This document shows, one piece after another, positions 18,708 through 29,934 of a DNA stretch of 29,934 nucleotides. Every line of letters starts with the position of its first letter. Positions within the stretch are counted from its first letter, which is position 1. The notes beneath the pieces were generated by a model. It searched no databases and had not been told where the DNA came from. It saw only the letters and a list, made by a program, of their open reading frames with translations. Origin of the DNA: a virus (taxonomy: Duplodnaviria > Heunggongvirae > Uroviricota > Caudoviricetes); the IMG/VR virus record IMGVR_UViG_2802429225_000009, positions 1-29,934 of that record. One strand, given 5' to 3'. The translations under genes and the position numbers were made by a program.

Positions 18708-19856
18708 ATGACATGGCCATCTGTCACGATTGAACAGTACAACACATTCAGCAGTTCACCGGACGGCGTGGAAAATACGCTGCTGTTTGTGGGCAATGCA
18801 CAAAACAACAAAGGTGAGGTTCTGCCGGTTAATGCCAACAGCGATCTGGATGAGCTACTGGGAAAGAACGCCAGCCCGCTGAAGAACTTCCTTCAGTCTG
18901 CACTGACCAATGCCGGACAGAATGCCTTTTTCTATGTTGCCGTTCTGCCGGAAGCCGGCAAAGGCAAAGAAGCAACGCCAGCCTGCCAGGTATGGCAGAA
19001 CGCCATACTGGCGGCTCAGGAAACTGTTTCAGTTGAAGGCGTGGTGATCACCGAGCCGGTCAGCACGAAGGATGACATCAACGCCATACAGGCGTTACGT
19101 CAGACCATCATCAATAAATATCAGCGCCGCATCTGGTTCATCCTGACCATCGCCGCCAACGACAACAGTAAAACCTGGGCGGAATACGTTGCCGAACTGA
19201 CCGCACTACAGAAAGGCATTGCAGCCCCGCAGGTCATGCTGGTTCCGGAGATTTTTGGATTTGAACCGGGCGTTCTTGCCGGTCGCCTGTGTAACAGCGC
19301 CGTCACCATTGCTGACAGTCCGGCACGTGTGGCAACCGGGCCCCTGTCCGCACTGAAAACCACAGAACGCCCGAAAGACAGCACAGGGCAGGCAATTGAT
19401 CTCGACACTCTGCAGGCGCTGGCAACCGCCCGCTACAGCGTGCCCATGTGGTATGCCGACTATGACGGCCTTTACTGGGCTGACGGTGTAACACTTGAGG
19501 TGGAAGGCGGGGACTACAACGTCATTGAGCATGTCCGCATTGCTGATAAGGTGGCGCGCCGCGTGCGGCTGATGGCCATCCCCAAGATTGCCGACCGCTC
19601 GCTGAACAGCACGCCGGGCAGCATTGCCGCACATGAAACGCTGTTTGCCCGCCCACTGCGTGCCATGGCGAAATCCATGCAAATTAACGGCATCACGTTT
19701 CCGGGCGAAGTGAAATCGCCCCGGAAAGGCGACGTGGTTATCACCTGGCAGGACGAAAAGACGGTCAGCATCAGCATTGTCGTCCGCCCTTACGCCTGCC
19801 CTAAAACCATCAAAGTGGGCATTCAGCTGGATAAATCTCTGGAGGAAAACGCATGA
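18708..19856 (+). CDS. Putative contractile tail sheath protein (not obviously P2 FI-like)
   Basis: Start re-set to ATG 18708 (MTWPSVTIEQYNTF...). 382 aa, followed directly by a ~150-aa gene and then chaperone and tape-measure genes, the canonical sheath-tube-chaperone-TMP order. Function inferred from synteny and size. Confidence 0.5.
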   Translation: MTWPSVTIEQYNTFSSSPDGVENTLLFVGNAQNNKGEVLPVNANSDLDELLGKNASPLKNFLQSALTNAGQNAFFYVAVLPEAGKGKEATPACQVWQNAILAAQETVSVEGVVITEPVSTKDDINAIQALRQTIINKYQRRIWFILTIAANDNSKTWAEYVAELTALQKGIAAPQVMLVPEIFGFEPGVLAGRLCNSAVTIADSPARVATGPLSALKTTERPKDSTGQAIDLDTLQALATARYSVPMWYADYDGLYWADGVTLEVEGGDYNVIEHVRIADKVARRVRLMAIPKIADRSLNSTPGSIAAHETLFARPLRAMAKSMQINGITFPGEVKSPRKGDVVITWQDEKTVSISIVVRPYACPKTIKVGIQLDKSLEENA

Positions 19857-20308
19857 CGACCCGCATTAACGGCATGGCGTTTGACACTTTTATCGGTGGA
19901 ACGGATATCCATGTGAAAAGCATCTCACTGGACATCAGCGATGAAAGCGCCGTTGCCAAAACCCGTGGCATCCCTGACGGCAAACTGCGCGGCCCTGTCA
20001 GTGCCGAAGGTGAAATCGAAATGAGTACCCGCAGCTTTAACCAGCTCGGGGAAGTGGCTGCTCAGGAGGGATCGTGGCGTGACCTGCCGCCAATGGATTT
20101 TGTGTTTTACGCCAACACGGGAACCGAAGAAATCCGCGTTGAAGCCTTCGGTTGTGAGCTGATGCTTTCCGGCCTGTTAAGCATTGACACCGAGAGCGCA
20201 GATCTGACCACGCACAAAATCAAGTACGTGGTGGCAAGCCCTGACTTTGTGCGTATCAACGGCGTGCCCGTTCTCTCAGAGAACGACGTGCGCGGACTGA
20301 TGGGGTGA
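19853..20308 (+). CDS. Putative tail tube protein
   Basis: 151 aa, ATGA-coupled to the putative sheath gene. Function inferred from synteny and size. Confidence 0.45.
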   Translation: MTTRINGMAFDTFIGGTDIHVKSISLDISDESAVAKTRGIPDGKLRGPVSAEGEIEMSTRSFNQLGEVAAQEGSWRDLPPMDFVFYANTGTEEIRVEAFGCELMLSGLLSIDTESADLTTHKIKYVVASPDFVRINGVPVLSENDVRGLMG

Positions 20309-20311
20309 ACC

Positions 20312-20608
20312 ATGCAGGAGCATGAGCGCACCATTATCACTCTGGGTATTCTGGGCGGAATCGCTGCCGCAAGTCGGGTGCTGGCTGGCGCAGAGCCGAT
20401 TACGTTGCGGTTGTTTGTGGGCCGAACCCTGCTGGGGAGCGCGCTGGGTGTTTCTGCCGCTGCCCTGCTGGTTCGCTACCCGAACCTTGACCCACTGGCC
20501 ATTGCCGGCGCAGGCACCGCAATGGGCGTTGCCGGTTACCAGATTGTTGAAATCTTCCTGCGTCATATGCGCCGGAAGCTGGGCGAGAAAGAGAACAAAG
20601 AGGAGTAA
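20312..20608 (+). CDS. Putative holin (small membrane protein with charged C-terminus)
   Basis: 98 aa. Two or three hydrophobic helices (IITLGILGGIAAASRVLAG; LLGSALGVSAAALLV; AIAGAGTAMGVAGYQIV) followed by a charged tail (RRKLGEKENKEE). Located just upstream of the peptidase gene. Confidence 0.5.
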   Translation: MQEHERTIITLGILGGIAAASRVLAGAEPITLRLFVGRTLLGSALGVSAAALLVRYPNLDPLAIAGAGTAMGVAGYQIVEIFLRHMRRKLGEKENKEE

Positions 20609-20613
20609 CAGCA

Positions 20614-20715
20614 ATGCTGTCCCGCAGGGAACAAAAAGCTGCCGCCATTGCCTGGAAAATTATCCGGGCACTGTGGTACTGGCTGCGCAAACCTCAGCAA
20701 CCTCATAAGGAGTAA
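20614..20715 (+). CDS. Possible 33-aa amphipathic peptide between the holin and endolysin genes
   Basis: ATG at 20614 with AGGAG 8 nt upstream. Translation MLSRREQKAAAIAWKIIRALWYWLRKPQQPHKE. Below the track cutoff. Confidence 0.25.
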   Translation: MLSRREQKAAAIAWKIIRALWYWLRKPQQPHKE

Positions 20716-20717
20716 AA

Positions 20718-21059
20718 ATGAAACTCTCCGATAAGCAACAACAATTTACCGTCATGATCGGAAAACTCATCCAGTTTGCCCATCAGCGCGGTTATGGCCT
20801 GACGTTCGGTGAGGCGTACCGCACGCCAGAACAGGCAAAACTCAACGCACAAAAGGGATCCGGCATTGCCAACAGCCTGCACTGCCAGCGGCTGGCCGTG
20901 GATTTTAATCTGTTTATTAACGGTGAATATCAGACCCGCACAGAGGCCTACCGTGAGCTGGGCGAGTACTGGGAATCCCTTGGTGGCGCATGGGGCGGTC
21001 GTTTTAAAAACCGACCGGATGGCAATCATTTCAGCCTTGAGCACGACGGCGTGCGCTGA
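20718..21059 (+). CDS. Peptidase M15-type endolysin (zinc D,D- or L,D-peptidase fold)
   Basis: 113 aa. Zinc-ligand pattern typical of small M15/VanY-like phage lysins: H...D in SLHCQRLAVDFNLF and a C-terminal H-x-H (NHFSLEH). Confidence 0.7.
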   Translation: MKLSDKQQQFTVMIGKLIQFAHQRGYGLTFGEAYRTPEQAKLNAQKGSGIANSLHCQRLAVDFNLFINGEYQTRTEAYRELGEYWESLGGAWGGRFKNRPDGNHFSLEHDGVR

Positions 21060-21065
21060 TTTTAC

Positions 21066-21115
21066 GCTTAATAAGCCTTCCTGCAGGCTTATTAAGCCCT
21101 CTTATTCTTGACTTT
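21066..21115 (+). terminator. Hairpin with T-rich tail inside the late operon (candidate attenuator)
   Basis: Perfect 12-bp stem GCTTAATAAGCC (21066-21077) / GGCTTATTAAGC (21086-21097) with an 8-nt loop, followed by CCTCTTATTCTTGACTTT. The T-tract is interrupted, so termination is probably partial. Confidence 0.4.
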
Positions 21116-21123
21116 AAAAGGAA

Positions 21124-21417
21124 ATGATGATGAACGATAAAAACACACAGACTACCGCAGAGAACACCATCACTTTACAGGTCGGCGAGCATGAACTGAC
21201 GTTTATCCCGACCGTAAAAGCCTACAACGACCTGCAGAACGACTTCATGCCGGATAACAAAATCGCGCCGCTGAAAAACTACCTGCGCCGTATCGTGATT
21301 AAAGAGCACCGCGATCTGCTGAACCAGTTGCTGGAAAAACCAGGAATGCCGGCCAGCCTGGCAACAGCCGTGAATAACGAGTTTGTGCCGGAAGTGGAAA
21401 TCACCGTAAAAAAATAA
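21124..21417 (+). CDS. Tail assembly chaperone (gpE/gpG-like), zero-frame product
   Basis: 97-aa acidic protein immediately upstream of the tape-measure gene. Ends in a poly-A slippery heptamer. Confidence 0.6.
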   Translation: MMMNDKNTQTTAENTITLQVGEHELTFIPTVKAYNDLQNDFMPDNKIAPLKNYLRRIVIKEHRDLLNQLLEKPGMPASLATAVNNEFVPEVEITVKK

Positions 21418-21605
21418 AAAGCCATCTGGGGGCCATTGATCGCAATGACCTGACCCGGATGCTGATTCTGCGCCGCCACTGGCTGCCCGGCGAGGATGAC
21501 TCGCCGCAGTCACTGGCTGCCGCCGTCTGGCTGGATAACCACTACTGGGAAAATATGAGCATCGCCGTCAATAACGGCATTATCCGTGCTTTTAAGGGAT
21601 CGTAA
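21124..21605 (+). CDS. Tail assembly chaperone, predicted -1 frameshift fusion product
   Basis: Slippery heptamer A_AAA_AAA at 21408-21414, just before the zero-frame stop (21415-21417). The -1 frame is open from there to a stop at 21603-21605 that overlaps the tape-measure ATG (extension ...IKSHLGAIDRNDLTRMLILRRHWLPGEDD...AFKGS). Confidence 0.45.
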
Positions 21606-23701
21606 TGTCACAACAGCGCCTTGAATTACTTCTTGAACTGACAGATCGCCTGACAAGGCCGTTGCGTGCAGCCGGGCGACAGGTTCAGGGATTTGCTGCA
21701 ACAAGTCGGGGAGCCTTTCGGGACATTGCTACCGGAGGCGCTGCGCTCTGGGGAGTGGGTGCAGCCATTCAGGGGGCACTGATGCCAGCCATTGAAATGG
21801 ACAGGGCGCTCGGTGAGGTGAAATCACTGGGCGTCGCAGAGTCCGGATTGCGTAAACTCAGCCGCGCCGCCGTTGATTTCACTATGGAATACGGCGGGGC
21901 TGCGCAGGATTTTGTGCGTGCTTCTTACGACATCCAGTCAGCCATTGCCGGGTTAACTGACGATGAGCTGTCCCGCTTCACCACCGCATCAGCAACGGTG
22001 GCAGCAGCAACCAAATCCAGCAGCCAGACCATTACCGCCTACATGGGCACCATGTACGGCATCTTTAAAGACCAGGCTGATGCCATGGGAAAAAGTAAAT
22101 GGGTGGAGCAGGTCGCCGGGCAAACCGCCACCGCCGTGCAAATGTTTAAAACAACCGGCGATAACATGTCAGCGGCGTTCACCACGCTGGGGGCTAGTGC
22201 AAAAGCGGCCGGTATTGATGCGGCTGAACAGTTCGCCGTGCTGGGACAACTACAGGCCACCATGAGTGGCAGCGAGGCCGGGACAAAATACAAGGCATTT
22301 CTTGCCGCAGTAGGTAGCGCCCAGAAAAAGCTGGGGCTTAATTTCGTGAATAAAGACGGCACCATGAAAAGTGTTGTCGAGATCATGAAACTTATCAGGG
22401 GTAAATTTGGTGATCTGTCAAAAGTGGCTGATTCCGATTTGCTAAAAAGCGCCTTTGGCTCCGATGAAGCTGTGGCCATGATTAAATTACTCAATGCGGA
22501 CATTGGCGGACTTGAAAAGAATATCGCCACGCTGGGCAATATCAAAGGTATGGATAAGGCTGTCGAAATGGCGCAGGCCATGGCTGATCCATGGGAACAG
22601 GCCGCTGCAATTATTAACGGCATTCGCATCGAAATTGGCACGCAGTTGTTGCCTGTTCTGTACCCGTTTATCCAGAAAAGCAACGAAGGCGGTAAATCCT
22701 TTGTTGCCTGGTTACGCCTGTATCCAAACATCACTCGCGCAATCGGCTTATTAAGCGCGGCACTTATTGGTGTTGCGGCGGTTGGCGCAACGGTCAATGT
22801 CGTAATGGGGGTTGCGAAATTTATCTGGGTGGGATTACGCATGGTCTGGATGGCCGTCATCGCCCCACTGAAATTAATCGTTTTTCTGTATCGCACAATG
22901 AGAGTGGTTATGCTTGCGTTCTGTGCTGCCGCCCGCATGGTAAGAGCAATATATCTGGCAATAAACATCGCCATGGGAGTGATGAATATTCGCGCCAGAG
23001 CACAACTGCTATTGATGGGCCTACAACGTGCCGGAATGCTCCTGCAGGCAGCAGCATTATCAGCCGTTTCTGTTGCCATGGGGATTTATTCCGCAGTCAC
23101 CAGCGGAGCCGCAATTGCAACACAGTTACTTTTCAGCCCCATCACATTAATCATCCTGGCACTGGCTGCGCTGGGTGTGGGCATTTATTTCCTGATTACC
23201 CGCTGGGATGAAATCAAAGCTGCACTGATGGATACCGCTGCATTTCAGTGGGTTGCCGGCATCATTAACAGCATGGGGGCGTGGTTCGGCAATGCATGGA
23301 GTGCAATCAGGGATGGCTGGAATGCACTGGTTAACTATTTTTCCACCCATTCACCACTGGATGCCCTGAAGGATCTCGCGGGCGGCATACTGAATATTTT
23401 CAGCAACCTCTGGGAACTGGTGAAACAGTCCTTCAGTGATTCATGGGGCTGGATTGTGGACAAACTCAACATGATCCCCGGCGTTAACATCGGCACATCA
23501 GAAAGCACAGGAAGTGGCGAAGGCTCCGTATTAACCGGCGGCAAAGCCATCAGTGCGGGACCGGGCGGCATTGCGGCAGAGATGCAGAACAACAGCGAAA
23601 ACCAGACCACCATCGACAACTCCCGTCGTGTGGTCAACGTCAATGTGCAGGATCCATCCCCTGCCCGTCTTAACGAGTGGATGGAGCTGCATGCATACTG
23701 A
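21605..23701 (+). CDS. Tail tape measure protein
   Basis: 698 aa. Alpha-helical, Ala/Gly-rich, with a central run of hydrophobic segments. Follows the chaperone frameshift site. Confidence 0.85.
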   Translation: MSQQRLELLLELTDRLTRPLRAAGRQVQGFAATSRGAFRDIATGGAALWGVGAAIQGALMPAIEMDRALGEVKSLGVAESGLRKLSRAAVDFTMEYGGAAQDFVRASYDIQSAIAGLTDDELSRFTTASATVAAATKSSSQTITAYMGTMYGIFKDQADAMGKSKWVEQVAGQTATAVQMFKTTGDNMSAAFTTLGASAKAAGIDAAEQFAVLGQLQATMSGSEAGTKYKAFLAAVGSAQKKLGLNFVNKDGTMKSVVEIMKLIRGKFGDLSKVADSDLLKSAFGSDEAVAMIKLLNADIGGLEKNIATLGNIKGMDKAVEMAQAMADPWEQAAAIINGIRIEIGTQLLPVLYPFIQKSNEGGKSFVAWLRLYPNITRAIGLLSAALIGVAAVGATVNVVMGVAKFIWVGLRMVWMAVIAPLKLIVFLYRTMRVVMLAFCAAARMVRAIYLAINIAMGVMNIRARAQLLLMGLQRAGMLLQAAALSAVSVAMGIYSAVTSGAAIATQLLFSPITLIILALAALGVGIYFLITRWDEIKAALMDTAAFQWVAGIINSMGAWFGNAWSAIRDGWNALVNYFSTHSPLDALKDLAGGILNIFSNLWELVKQSFSDSWGWIVDKLNMIPGVNIGTSESTGSGEGSVLTGGKAISAGPGGIAAEMQNNSENQTTIDNSRRVVNVNVQDPSPARLNEWMELHAY

Positions 23702-27549: not shown

Positions 27550-28101
27550 ATGTTGCATTTAAAAAATATTACTGCGGGTAATCCGAAAACCGCGGAACAA
27601 TATCAGCTGACAAAACAATATGGTGTCACCTGGCTTTTTTCGGAAGACGGCAAAAACTGGTATGAAGAACAGAAGAACTTTGCCAGTGACACCATAAAAA
27701 TGGTTTACACCGGAGACGGGCGCGTGGTGTGGGTCGGTAAGGATGTGACAGGCATTGAACCCCGTAACGCCAGTGTTATTGAAGTTCCGGATATTACCGC
27801 TAATCGCCGTATTACCGCGCCTGGTTACTGGTTTTACCGCGATGGCAATTTTATCTTCGACTACAAACTTAAAGCGGAAGATGAGCGTGATGCACTGTTA
27901 AAACAGGCCAGTATCATGACCAGCGAATGGGAAAAAGACCTGCTGCTGGGATTAATCAGCGACGAAGACAGGGAAAAACTGAAAGCCTGCCGTATTTATA
28001 CAAAAACGTTACGGGAGATGACATTCAGCCAGGTTACAGATAAAGCATCGTATGCCGCGATTGTATGGCCAGAATTACCGCAGAACATTAGCGAGAATTA
28101 A
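27550..28101 (+). CDS. Tail fibre assembly protein (gpG/Tfa-like)
   Basis: 183 aa, immediately after the fibre gene. N-terminal conserved start and C-terminal VWPELP-type motif typical of P2 G / lambda Tfa family. Confidence 0.75.
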   Translation: MLHLKNITAGNPKTAEQYQLTKQYGVTWLFSEDGKNWYEEQKNFASDTIKMVYTGDGRVVWVGKDVTGIEPRNASVIEVPDITANRRITAPGYWFYRDGNFIFDYKLKAEDERDALLKQASIMTSEWEKDLLLGLISDEDREKLKACRIYTKTLREMTFSQVTDKASYAAIVWPELPQNISEN

Positions 28102-28107
28102 GAAGTA

Positions 28108-29934
28108 ATGAGCGCATTGTTGACGAAAGCATTTGAAAAGTGGGTTGCTGAATGCACAGCCAGTAATTTACCTGCACGCCCTGATGCTATTATTTTTGCC
28201 CTGATGGAGCGGGAACCAACGCGCGAAGATAATACCGTTCCGGAAGAAAAAATCACATATGCTGTGAATGAACTGACTTACGGCCAGTTAAGCCCGAACA
28301 ATATTGTGTGTAGCGCGGTTGTTCCTGATGACTGTGCATTCAGTTATGACTGGATTTGCCTTATCCATCAGGCCAGCGGAACACTATGCGGCGTAATAAA
28401 GACGCCTGTTCAACAAAAAGTAACAGGCGAATCACTTATTCGTAATTTCACAATTATATACAGCGGCATTGCTCAGGCTGCGCAAATTACCGTTCCTCCA
28501 CAGAGCTGGCAGGTAGATCTTTTCCCTGAAATAAACAAAAAAGCGCCACTGGACAGCCCGGCGTTCACCGGCACACCAACCACACCAACTCCGCCAGACG
28601 ATGCGGTCGGGCTGGAGATGGCGAACGCAGCGTTTGTTCGCAAACTGCTCGCCGCACTGGTTGACTCATCACCGGAAGCCCTGGACACACTGAACGAACT
28701 GGCAGCGGCGCTGGGCAATGACCCGAACTTTTCGACGACGGTCATTAGCGCGCTGGCGGGTAAACAACCGCTGAACGATTTGCTGACGGCAATCAGTGAA
28801 CTGACGAAACGGGCAGATAATCTTCTGTACTTTAATCAGGACGGGAATGTTTCTCTCTCTCCGCTGTCAGAAAAAGCCCGCGCATTACTGGCACTGGACA
28901 CACCTGAAGCCATGCGCACGGAACTTGAACTGAAAGCGGCTGCAACGATGGAGTCCCAGAGCAATATCCGCGACCGCACACCAGGCAGGCTGGCGCTGCC
29001 GGGGGCATTTGGATACGGAATGACAGAGCACGAGGGGATGGTGCTCGGCATTACAAATCTTGATGAGCTTGCGTTGATATGCATGAACACAGAACCAGGT
29101 CGATATTACACATCATCAATGTCATCAGGTGATTTAACTGGTGTAGTCGAATTTATCTGGCTGGACAACTGGCAGAATGACAAAACCAGCCAGACAGCAA
29201 CAAAACTTATTCTGTTTTACGGAAGAGACGGACGTATTCTTTCCAGCGTTCGCGGCTCTGACTACGGAGCCCCTGTTGTATGGAGAGATCTTACCCCATT
29301 AACTGGCAACACAACTGTAAAAGACGCGCAATCGGATATCCGGGATCGTACACCTGGCAGGCTGGCGCTGTCCGGCATGTATGGATTCGGCCAAGCATTT
29401 ACCAGCACCGAAGCCCTGACATTTAACGGACAGGCCGATTTTGCTGAATGGCTGAAAGAGGCCACCCCGGGGCGTTATGCGGTCAGTATTGCGGACTCTT
29501 CCACACTACTGGCGGGCACCACGAAATTTAACGGCATCATTGATGTGATGTGGTCACCCTTTGATAACGACGAGTCGGACACAACGCGCAAATTCAAAAC
29601 GCTGCTGTGTTTTAACCAGTATTACGAAGGTGAGCACAGTATTCATCGCCTGACTTACCGCTGGAGTGGAAACAACTGGAATGCAACAGTAAGCCCCATT
29701 ATTTACGACGGCGATTCGCTGGCGTTCCTGCTGTCCAGGACAGCTGGCTCAGGCTCATATTTCAAATACCCGGCAGTGGGTGTTCCGGTGCTGGCTGTTT
29801 ATCGCGGAACAACTTCCGGGGATAAAGAAATCAAAATTGGCCTGGGTGATGTGGTGCAGGGGTCACAACTGGGCGGAGTTAATCTTTCGTGCACAATATC
29901 TTCTGCGGGGGCTGGCTCCTACGGTTCCACACCG
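28108..29934 (+). CDS. Second tail fibre protein (side-tail-fibre / Stf-like), 3' partial
   Basis: Open frame from ATG 28108 to the window end (609 codons, no stop), absent from the ORF track because it has no in-window stop. N-terminus (MSALLTKAFEKWVAECTASNLPARPD...) parallels the first fibre. The segment SPEALDTLNELAAALGNDPNFSTTVISALAGKQPLNDLLTAISEL matches the conserved block of lambda Stf / Mu S / P1 S-type fibres as I remember them. Confidence 0.7.
   Translation, partial: MSALLTKAFEKWVAECTASNLPARPDAIIFALMEREPTREDNTVPEEKITYAVNELTYGQLSPNNIVCSAVVPDDCAFSYDWICLIHQASGTLCGVIKTPVQQKVTGESLIRNFTIIYSGIAQAAQITVPPQSWQVDLFPEINKKAPLDSPAFTGTPTTPTPPDDAVGLEMANAAFVRKLLAALVDSSPEALDTLNELAAALGNDPNFSTTVISALAGKQPLNDLLTAISELTKRADNLLYFNQDGNVSLSPLSEKARALLALDTPEAMRTELELKAAATMESQSNIRDRTPGRLALPGAFGYGMTEHEGMVLGITNLDELALICMNTEPGRYYTSSMSSGDLTGVVEFIWLDNWQNDKTSQTATKLILFYGRDGRILSSVRGSDYGAPVVWRDLTPLTGNTTVKDAQSDIRDRTPGRLALSGMYGFGQAFTSTEALTFNGQADFAEWLKEATPGRYAVSIADSSTLLAGTTKFNGIIDVMWSPFDNDESDTTRKFKTLLCFNQYYEGEHSIHRLTYRWSGNNWNATVSPIIYDGDSLAFLLSRTAGSGSYFKYPAVGVPVLAVYRGTTSGDKEIKIGLGDVVQGSQLGGVNLSCTISSAGAGSYGSTP
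28964..29384 (+). repeat. Intragenic direct repeat in the second fibre gene
   Basis: About 50 bp at 28964-29015 and 29338-29389 share roughly 80% identity, including a perfect 15-mer GGCAGGCTGGCGCTG (28984-28998 and 29358-29372). They encode a repeated SxIRDRTPGRLAL(P/S)G..G(Y/F)G motif 374 bp apart. Confidence 0.6.

Follow-up and report, generated by a model that had tools for sequence, protein, structure and literature searches.

About 15% of the phages of Gram-negative hosts have no spanins, and the sole characterised substitute is gp28 of phage phiKT, whose discoverers predicted that unrelated peptides of such a kind would be found in other spanin-less phages (bioRxiv 10.1101/515445). Here we describe the lysis module of a P2/HP1-like (Peduoviridae) prophage of Escherichia coli, contained in IMG/VR virus record IMGVR_UViG_2802429225_000009 (positions 1 to 29,934; this whole stretch of 29,934 nucleotides is referred to below as the window). 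The module consists of a holin gene, a small open reading frame (ORF) for a cationic peptide of 33 amino acids and the gene for an M15 endolysin, and the spanin pair of its sister lineages has been lost from it.

Lysis genes in comparable surroundings are known from several phages. In HP1, hol and lys sit between ORF24 (tail tube) and ORF25 (PMC7312051), within the order sheath (orf23), tube (orf24), hol, lys, Rz-like orf25, orf26 and tape measure (orf27). In Escherichia phage ESSI2_ev239 and Yersinia phage vB_YenM_324 the order is tube, holin, M15 endolysin, i-spanin, o-spanin and chaperone. In P2, the genes Y, K, lysA, lysB and lysC are embedded between tail gene X and tail genes R/S, and an annotated attenuator follows the lysis genes.

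A preliminary description of the window, made from its sequence, had placed holin-like, 33-residue and M15 peptidase ORFs between putative tube and chaperone genes, and all three are present there at exactly those coordinates (Table 1). It had also regarded lysis genes inside a tail operon as anomalous, which they are not, as HP1, the ESSI-2-like phages, their Yersinia relatives, about 58 loci in IMG/VR and P2 are all comparable. A scan of IMG/VR with the endolysin recovered 80 loci, all but two of which have the order tube, holin, endolysin and chaperone. In HP1-type phages the standard slot for the lysis genes lies between tail tube and tail chaperone, and an embedded lysis cassette is already known and ordinary for this phage family.

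The closest systems nevertheless differ from the window in several ways. HP1 and the ESSI-2-like Peduoviridae (Evevirus, Tresduoquattuorvirus) share with it the slot running from sheath, tube, holin and endolysin through to tail chaperone and tape measure. The ESSI-2-like phages also share the same endolysin (75-84% amino acid identity) and a PF04550 holin, but they carry an i-spanin gene and an overlapping o-spanin gene 3' of the endolysin gene and have no ORF between holin and endolysin. HP1 likewise has no such intervening ORF and has the Rz-like orf25 after its endolysin gene; unlike the window, it encodes a pinholin and a signal-arrest-release (SAR) muramidase (PMC7312051) rather than an M15 peptidase. 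P2 resembles the window in having a homologous holin (gpY, 43% identity by tblastn), lysis genes within the morphogenetic late operon and an attenuator hairpin after them. However, its lysis genes lie between X and R/S and not after the tube gene, its K protein belongs to a different endolysin family from the M15 enzyme, and neither its regulator LysA nor its LysB/LysC spanins have a counterpart in the window. By position the cassette is an HP1/ESSI-2-type lysis module, and by sequence its holin belongs to the P2 Y family and its endolysin to the M15 family.

Loss of the spanin pair

In the ESSI-2-like loci (about 58 in IMG/VR), endolysin and chaperone genes are separated by about 490 nucleotides, which hold one ORF with a transmembrane domain (TMD) and one with a lipobox. 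The endolysin stop overlaps the start of the i-spanin ORF, whose transmembrane segment is N-terminal, and the o-spanin ORF, with its lipobox and a conserved PNV-YQEN motif, overlaps the 3' half of the i-spanin ORF and ends in a stop that overlaps the chaperone start. From endolysin stop to chaperone start there are 64 nucleotides in the window, and 68-100 in all of the approximately 30 loci of the clade to which it belongs (L004-L022, L084, L092, L097, L105 and L109-L117, from E. coli, E. albertii and Citrobacter freundii). This whole Escherichia/Citrobacter clade has lost the i-/o-spanin pair present in sister lineages. We hold with high confidence that the identity of the cassette, its ordinary placement and the spanin loss are, taken together, correct.

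Directly after the endolysin stop, where the relatives carry their spanin genes, there is a 13-bp stem-loop followed by a conserved TTGAC(A/T). The stem is kept across 11 diverged clade loci, with compensatory double changes in four pairs, and it is absent in the spanin-bearing relatives, whose o-spanin gene overlaps the chaperone gene. The stem-loop may be a terminator or attenuator, by analogy with the one annotated at the end of the P2 lysis genes. Late promoter dyads of the P2 Ogr type (TGT-N12-ACA) number 6 where 7.2 are expected, none of them informative, and a sigma-70 scan found no promoter in 19700-21800.

A small gene between holin and endolysin

The small ORF has a GAGGAG 8 nucleotides upstream of its ATG, and its stop lies inside the AAGGAG ribosome-binding site of the endolysin gene. 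The allele in the window is atypical, having TAA at codon 34, where most relatives have CAA and hence a 35-residue ORF with a TGA that overlaps the endolysin ATG. Diverged contexts were fetched via holin homologues of 68-93% identity. These lineages retain the start codon and the Shine-Dalgarno (SD) sequence of the small ORF, with ATGA/GTGA overlaps at either end; the peptide versions are 31, 35, 36, 39 and 41 residues long, and in every case the ORF begins at the holin stop or overlaps it and ends at the endolysin start or slightly beyond. Judging from this arrangement, the small ORF is predicted to be translationally coupled to both holin and endolysin. The core A-I-x-W-[KR]-[IV]-[IL]-R-[AT]-L-W is common to the diverged homologues (L109-L116 and L022), where it is written with different synonymous codons, and in L111 and L113 both of the other frames are interrupted by stops.

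Among close alleles, a hand count on the allele alignment gave twelve synonymous and thirteen missense site changes, the latter mostly conservative (R/K, E/D, I/V, A/V, Y/H/R). The ratio of non-synonymous to synonymous differences per site (pN/pS), calculated by the method of Nei and Gojobori (NG86), is 0.18-0.42 for the peptide in these alleles and mostly 0.00-0.15 for the flanking genes, reaching 0.30 where flanking-gene alleles differ by only one or two changes. Between diverged lineages it is 0.3-0.8 for the peptide, as an uncorrected value from pairs with saturated synonymous sites, and 0.0-0.15 for the endolysin. Insertions and deletions that keep the frame are seen in L019 (a 3-nucleotide deletion), P0033 and P0034. 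It is probable, and we say so with some assurance, that the peptide is the product of a translated gene under weak purifying selection. At codons 27-31 (window ~20692-20706) the ORF has in-frame 9-nucleotide 'QQP' units in 0, 1 or 2 copies (P0033, P0034), which suggests slippage.

Other gene callers annotate homologues of 35, 36, 39 and 41 residues (L110, L111, L114 and L116), and one homologue is held by NCBI as a hypothetical protein. The Prokaryotic Genome Annotation Pipeline (PGAP) of RefSeq leaves the ORF unannotated in a prophage of the window type (L001 20810-20918, equivalent to window 20609-20717). For homologue searches the 41-residue version of L022 was used, followed by the family alignment. 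The family has no match in Pfam, PHROG or NCBIfam, and tblastn of the 33-residue peptide against 50,697 phage records gave none either. An exhaustive hidden Markov model search of 1.84 billion representatives returned the three representatives of the family itself and one spurious repeat protein, P0042. The peptide gene is confined to this clade and is fast-evolving.

The origin of the peptide can probably be traced to its neighbour. Residues 1-18 of the peptide align in register with residues 1-18 of the endolysin, as in MKLTDRQQKRAAIAWKIL (peptide) and MKLSDKQQQFTVMIGKLI (endolysin). The ungapped BLOSUM62 score between the two is higher than that of shuffled peptides (p <= 0.001) in five of six lineages, and in profile-profile alignment with hhalign positions 1-19 of the two proteins pair with each other (P = 0.001; P = 0.011 in an earlier run). 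Because of this in-register N-terminal match, the peptide is likely to have arisen through a partial tandem duplication at the 5' end of the endolysin gene. An origin of the peptide C-terminus from the holin 3' end is inseparable from the SD constraint and is therefore not claimed.

Neighbour-joining trees of the tube, holin, endolysin and chaperone proteins show the spanin-less clade as monophyletic on a long branch. Within it the peptide-bearing L022/L116 lineage is basal and the lineages without the peptide are nested in peptide-bearing ones, grouping together in the holin tree. Since the clade is monophyletic and its basal lineages carry the peptide, peptide gain and spanin loss would fall on the same branch. 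The simplest history suggested by these sequences is one of spanin loss and peptide gain on that branch, a single later loss of the peptide, and some recombination.

Possible function of the peptide

The preliminary description called the small product an amphipathic peptide, and its hydrophobic moment and predicted helix bear this out. Intact family members have a net charge of +6 to +10 (+6 in the window allele) and one to three tryptophans, and their best 18-residue helical hydrophobic moment is 0.50-0.83 (0.62 in the window allele). The parental endolysin N-terminus has a charge of +1 to +3, no tryptophan and a moment of 0.35-0.41. For comparison, the moment is 0.68 for phiKT gp28 (charge +7), 0.89 for LL-37, 0.66 for cecropin A and 0.51 for magainin 2. 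AlphaFold2, given the single sequence, models residues 4-24 as a helix with a mean predicted local distance difference test (pLDDT) score of 77.6, and a hydropathy scan found no hydrophobic segment long enough to span a membrane. These predicted properties would fit a membrane-active cationic peptide better than an antiholin or timer.

A candidate disruptin has been defined by a length below 80 amino acids, a charge of at least +4, an amphipathic helix, no TMD or signal sequence and a place in the lysis cassette of a spanin-less phage (10.1101/515445). By computation, the peptide family (33-41 amino acids) has all of these features of length, charge, helix, absence of a TMD and position. phiKT gp28 (Holt et al.; bioRxiv 10.1101/515445) is likewise small, without TMD or signal, of about +7 charge and predicted to form an amphipathic helix, and its gene lies between those for holin and endolysin in a coliphage without spanins. 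The two also differ: gp28 has 56 residues, the gene order in phiKT is endolysin-peptide-holin and not holin-peptide-endolysin, and the window peptide is probably derived from an endolysin N-terminus and is naturally absent in some members of its clade. An outer-membrane function has been shown for gp28 only.

Because gp28 is the only characterised substitute for spanins and is itself small, of +7 charge, helical, without a TMD and encoded in the same slot of a spanin-less coliphage, a disruptin-like role at the outer membrane is our favoured, though tentative, hypothesis for the peptide. In this scheme the holin would accumulate in the inner membrane, trigger and form holes, through which the endolysin and the 4-kDa peptide would escape to the periplasm. 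The endolysin would cleave the L-Ala-D-Glu bonds of the peptidoglycan stem peptides, and the peptide would bind to the outer membrane and destabilise it, as phiKT gp28 does, partly offsetting the loss of the spanins. The peptide gene would then found a second, independently evolved disruptin family, which took over outer-membrane disruption after the spanin deletion. We give this reading a probability of roughly 0.3. Because there is a sublineage without the peptide and because nonsense and frameshift alleles exist, the peptide would be accessory and not essential; spanin mutants of lambda still lyse in shaken, low-Mg2+ cultures. On the broader proposition that the parts of the module described above hold and that the peptide contributes to lysis in some accessory way, the scales tip slightly towards acceptance.

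Several points weigh against the disruptin reading. The association of spanin loss with peptide gain concerns one branch, and as a single evolutionary coincidence it carries no statistical weight. The pN/pS of the peptide is 5-10 times that of its neighbours, so constraint is weak, and raw polymorphic sites by codon position number 7/9/10, with no third-position excess. (Taking the ORF as non-coding from these counts was rejected, given that many first-position changes are synonymous Leu/Arg changes and the NG86 pN/pS is below 1.) All three frames are fairly open in the window allele, so that openness alone is no evidence for a gene. There are alleles with a stop at codon 28 (L010), frameshifted clusters (P0040 and P0041) and W-to-R variants, and the lineages L112, L115 and L117 have neither spanins nor the peptide ORF; in these the arrangement is that of the ESSI-2-like phages, with the holin stop overlapping the endolysin start. 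BLASTP of the peptide against gp28 gave no alignment at E <= 100, although homology to gp28 is not a strict criterion, since gp28 itself has no family beyond one near-identical protein. The phage collection holds no cultured phage of the spanin-less clade.

Much of this would also be seen if the small ORF were a duplication scar, translated via an inherited ribosome-binding site and kept open only for coupling to the endolysin, with a functionless peptide. The clade would then simply have no dedicated outer-membrane step and would rely on shear or osmotic rupture instead. The duplication origin and the overlapping stop and start codons at both ends agree with such a scar, as do the C-terminal 'KE' codons, which are the endolysin SD sequence, the weak constraint with its raw counts lacking a third-position excess, the natural deletion, nonsense and frameshift alleles, and the peptide-less, spanin-less lineages, which are found on 16 contigs. 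Set against it are the pN/pS values below 1 (0.18-0.42 in close alleles, and below 0.8 uncorrected even in synonymous-saturated pairs), the core W-K-I-I-R-A-L-W, which is kept through synonymous codon changes across lineages, and the shift of every intact member to high positive charge, tryptophan and amphipathicity relative to the parental sequence. Coupling is also not obviously needed, since the endolysin gene has a strong SD sequence of its own. We consider a scar a serious but rather unlikely explanation.

The peptide could also be a cytoplasmic antiholin or lysis timer, binding either to the charged holin tail or to the inner membrane at its inner leaflet, where it would shift the moment of holin triggering. 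Its gene directly follows that of the holin, and coupling of their translation would keep the two products at a fixed stoichiometry. In P2 the regulator is a protein of its own (LysA), and a dispensable, fast-evolving protein fits a modulator of timing. The holin lacks a dual-start motif, and an antiholin would therefore need its own gene. However, the peptide has no TMD, and the antiholins considered here (lambda S107, P2 LysA, T4 RI, P1 LydB) are mostly membrane proteins, T4 RIII being cytoplasmic. An antiholin is expected to be either an alternative-start form of the holin or a membrane protein that binds it, such as P2 LysA, to which the peptide has no similarity (hhalign P = 0.15). Its appearance coincides with spanin loss. 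Sister phages that have spanins and a homologous holin lack the gene, so that holins of this type do not generally have such a partner. A role in timing therefore appears distinctly unlikely.

Searches for further lysis genes

Nested spanins have been overlooked before, e.g. in LambdaSo. Spanins might be nested in the endolysin or holin genes, lie elsewhere in the prophage, about 6 kb of which is outside the window, or be of an unrecognised protein type. A first, strict lipobox scan recovered four of seven control o-spanins and was then relaxed; the relaxed scan, over both strands, all frames and all starts, recovered seven of seven. It gave no plausible candidate: the four ORFs that it picked out in the window are antisense or out of context, and it picked out none in the remaining part of the prophage (L001). 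Host BamD had served as an internal positive in an earlier scan. The preliminary description had called for a search for embedded lipoprotein ORFs in the peptidase region, and the +1 and +2 frames of the endolysin gene contain no lipobox with a signal peptide. With eleven spanin proteins of the relatives as queries, tblastn gave noise only, and among 20 prophage ORFs that are hypothetical or poorly named, PHROG scans found no spanin, holin or endolysin. No TMD-bearing i-spanin ORF with an accompanying lipobox ORF was found in or near the cassette. On the strength of these negative scans there is no Rz/Rz1 pair, as the preliminary description had noted and the short endolysin-chaperone gap also indicates, and no second, canonical lysis cassette elsewhere in the prophage. 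We regard a hidden spanin as very improbable.

Holin and endolysin

The 98-residue product, described earlier as a holin-like membrane protein, matches PF04550 Phage_holin_3_2 with 97.7 bits (cut-off 25) over 85 of 86 profile positions and PHROG 175 'holin' with an E value of 1e-32. Its gene lies 109 nucleotides upstream of the endolysin gene, which it overlaps in the peptide-less lineages, and has a single Met start. Hydropathy marks two segments, at ~7-27 and ~34-56, and a charged C-terminal tail (84-98, with 10 charged residues). A third, weaker segment at ~61-83 was read by eye and is below the hydropathy threshold of the scan. The topology check proposed for both small products was thus positive for the 98-residue protein, with two clear and one weaker hydrophobic segments, and negative for the 33-residue peptide, which has no TMD. 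A holin of class I topology has three segments. Segments and tail are consistent with this class, to which P2 Y was reportedly assigned by To et al. in 2013 (J Bacteriol 195:1346, cited in PMC6116005).

The identification of the 113-residue product as an M15 peptidase is supported by a match to PF13539 Peptidase_M15_4 (44.1 bits, cut-off 25) and to several PHROG endolysin families, its activity being predicted. A profile of 13 homologues matches two L-Ala-D-Glu peptidases, Ply500 of Listeria phage A500 (2vo9, E 0.0017) and the endolysin of T5 (2mxz, E 0.009). H55, D62, D101 and H104, the zinc ligands and catalytic Asp, are invariant in the 13 homologues and align with the SxH, AVD and DxxH motifs of 8q2g, 2vo9 and 2mxz. 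The protein shares with the T5 endolysin and Ply500 the LAS/M15 signature with its H-x6-D...D-x2-H zinc site, but the similarity is distant (profile E 0.002-0.009), and at 113 residues it is shorter and has no cell-wall-binding domain. It is most likely an M15/LAS metallopeptidase acting as an L-alanyl-D-glutamate endopeptidase. It has no hydrophobic segment (maximum 17-residue Kyte-Doolittle mean 0.55), signal peptide or SAR sequence. It is predicted to be a soluble, cytoplasmic endolysin of the holin-dependent type, with an intact Zn-binding triad.

The same M15 endolysin, at 79% amino acid identity, occurs in a cassette in the classical P2 position in another IMG/VR record (L023 2000-4600; UViG 2847745031_000004), where the order is head completion, gpX-like, two membrane proteins, endolysin and a 162-residue i-spanin with an embedded lipobox o-spanin. 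Given this occurrence, the M15 endolysin is a mobile module that is found with spanins in two other cassette architectures. That the peptidase is instead a virion-associated tail lysin used in infection, which would explain its place between tail genes and has parallels in the M15 domains of some phage tail proteins (PHROG 1768 aligns within a 1577-position profile), is most improbable, as it is a bare catalytic domain with no structural domain, its gene is always directly 3' of the holin gene and in relatives 5' of the spanin genes with overlapping stop and start codons, and the L023 enzyme stands in a lysis cassette.

The locus, its neighbours and its hosts

The features of the module and the genes that bound it are listed in Table 1. 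Further out, a sheath gene (DUF2586) lies 5' of the tube gene and a tape measure gene 3' of the chaperone gene.

Table 1. Features of the lysis module and its two boundary genes (window coordinates)
Feature	Position	Strand	Basis or remark
Tail tube, 151 aa	19853..20308	+	PF10772 Phage_HP1_Orf24, E 1e-49; PHROG 1182 tail protein; upstream module boundary
Holin, 98 aa, P2 gpY family	20312..20608	+	PF04550, PHROG 175
Small ORF, 33-aa allele of a normally 35-aa peptide	20614..20715	+	SD sequence, conservation, pN/pS
M15 endolysin, 113 aa	20718..21059	+	PF13539, PHROG endolysin families
13-bp stem-loop, terminator- or attenuator-like	21066..21097	+	Terminator-like match, conserved stem
Tail assembly chaperone, 97 aa	21124..21417	+	PF10963 Phage_TAC_10, E 1.6e-26; downstream module boundary

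Two longer ORFs on the same strand, of 128 residues (20322-20708) and 100 residues (20809-21111), were rejected as genes, being out-of-frame overlaps with no family match, signal peptide or lipobox. Both stay open in relatives, and they are most likely by-products of a stop-poor composition.

A 1.7-kb region of the locus has a match in 42 of 5,426 complete E. coli genomes, in 41 of them at 95% identity or more, and it is always chromosomal. In one carrier, PGAP annotates a P2-like prophage with integrase, gpA-type replication endonuclease, Ogr and portal/terminase genes, as well as homologues of GPO/N/M/L/R/S. The E. coli strains MB07081 (NZ_CM129880) and FHI_NMBU_10 (NZ_CP046539) are among the carriers, and GCA_946061835.1 represents a natural lineage without the peptide. 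Neither the L022-type junction nor the peptide-less L112-type junction occurs in the 5,426 genomes. A scan of genome contigs with the tube protein gave E. albertii only, and the clade is therefore narrow.

In window 21400-21605, the chaperone gene ends in GTA AAA AAA TAA, and its -1 frame is open from the A-run into a 48-residue DUF6890 ORF (21459-21605), the stop of which overlaps the tape-measure start. This arrangement resembles the programmed -1 frameshift that is classical for tail assembly chaperone genes, as in P2 (E/E+E') and lambda (G/GT). In the tail-fibre region, towards the end of the window (~28100-29934; L001 28309-29820) PGAP annotates a truncated second tail-collar fibre gene and a shikimate transporter pseudogene fragment. 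In the right end of the prophage (L001 34700-36041) it annotates a Hok/Gef toxin and a pair of Com and DNA methyltransferase genes, and in the early region ParM-type partition genes and an SPFH-domain protein.

Implications

The spanin-less state together with an endolysin-derived cationic mini-gene appears to be undescribed in the literature searched. The locus offers a natural case in E. coli in which one and the same branch saw a well-understood four-gene lysis cassette lose its spanins and acquire a tiny gene for a cationic peptide, and it is also a case of a conserved small gene being overlooked by PGAP. The peptide-plus and peptide-minus lineages, along with the spanin-bearing sisters, would be ready-made natural controls. 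If the disruptin reading is true, the peptide would be a short membrane-active one (a helix of ~22 residues), suited to a lambda Rz/Rz1 complementation assay. The disruptin solution would then be recurrent, with a second, unrelated example whose origin is traceable, and the module would illustrate the birth of a gene from a duplicate of its neighbour's 5' end.

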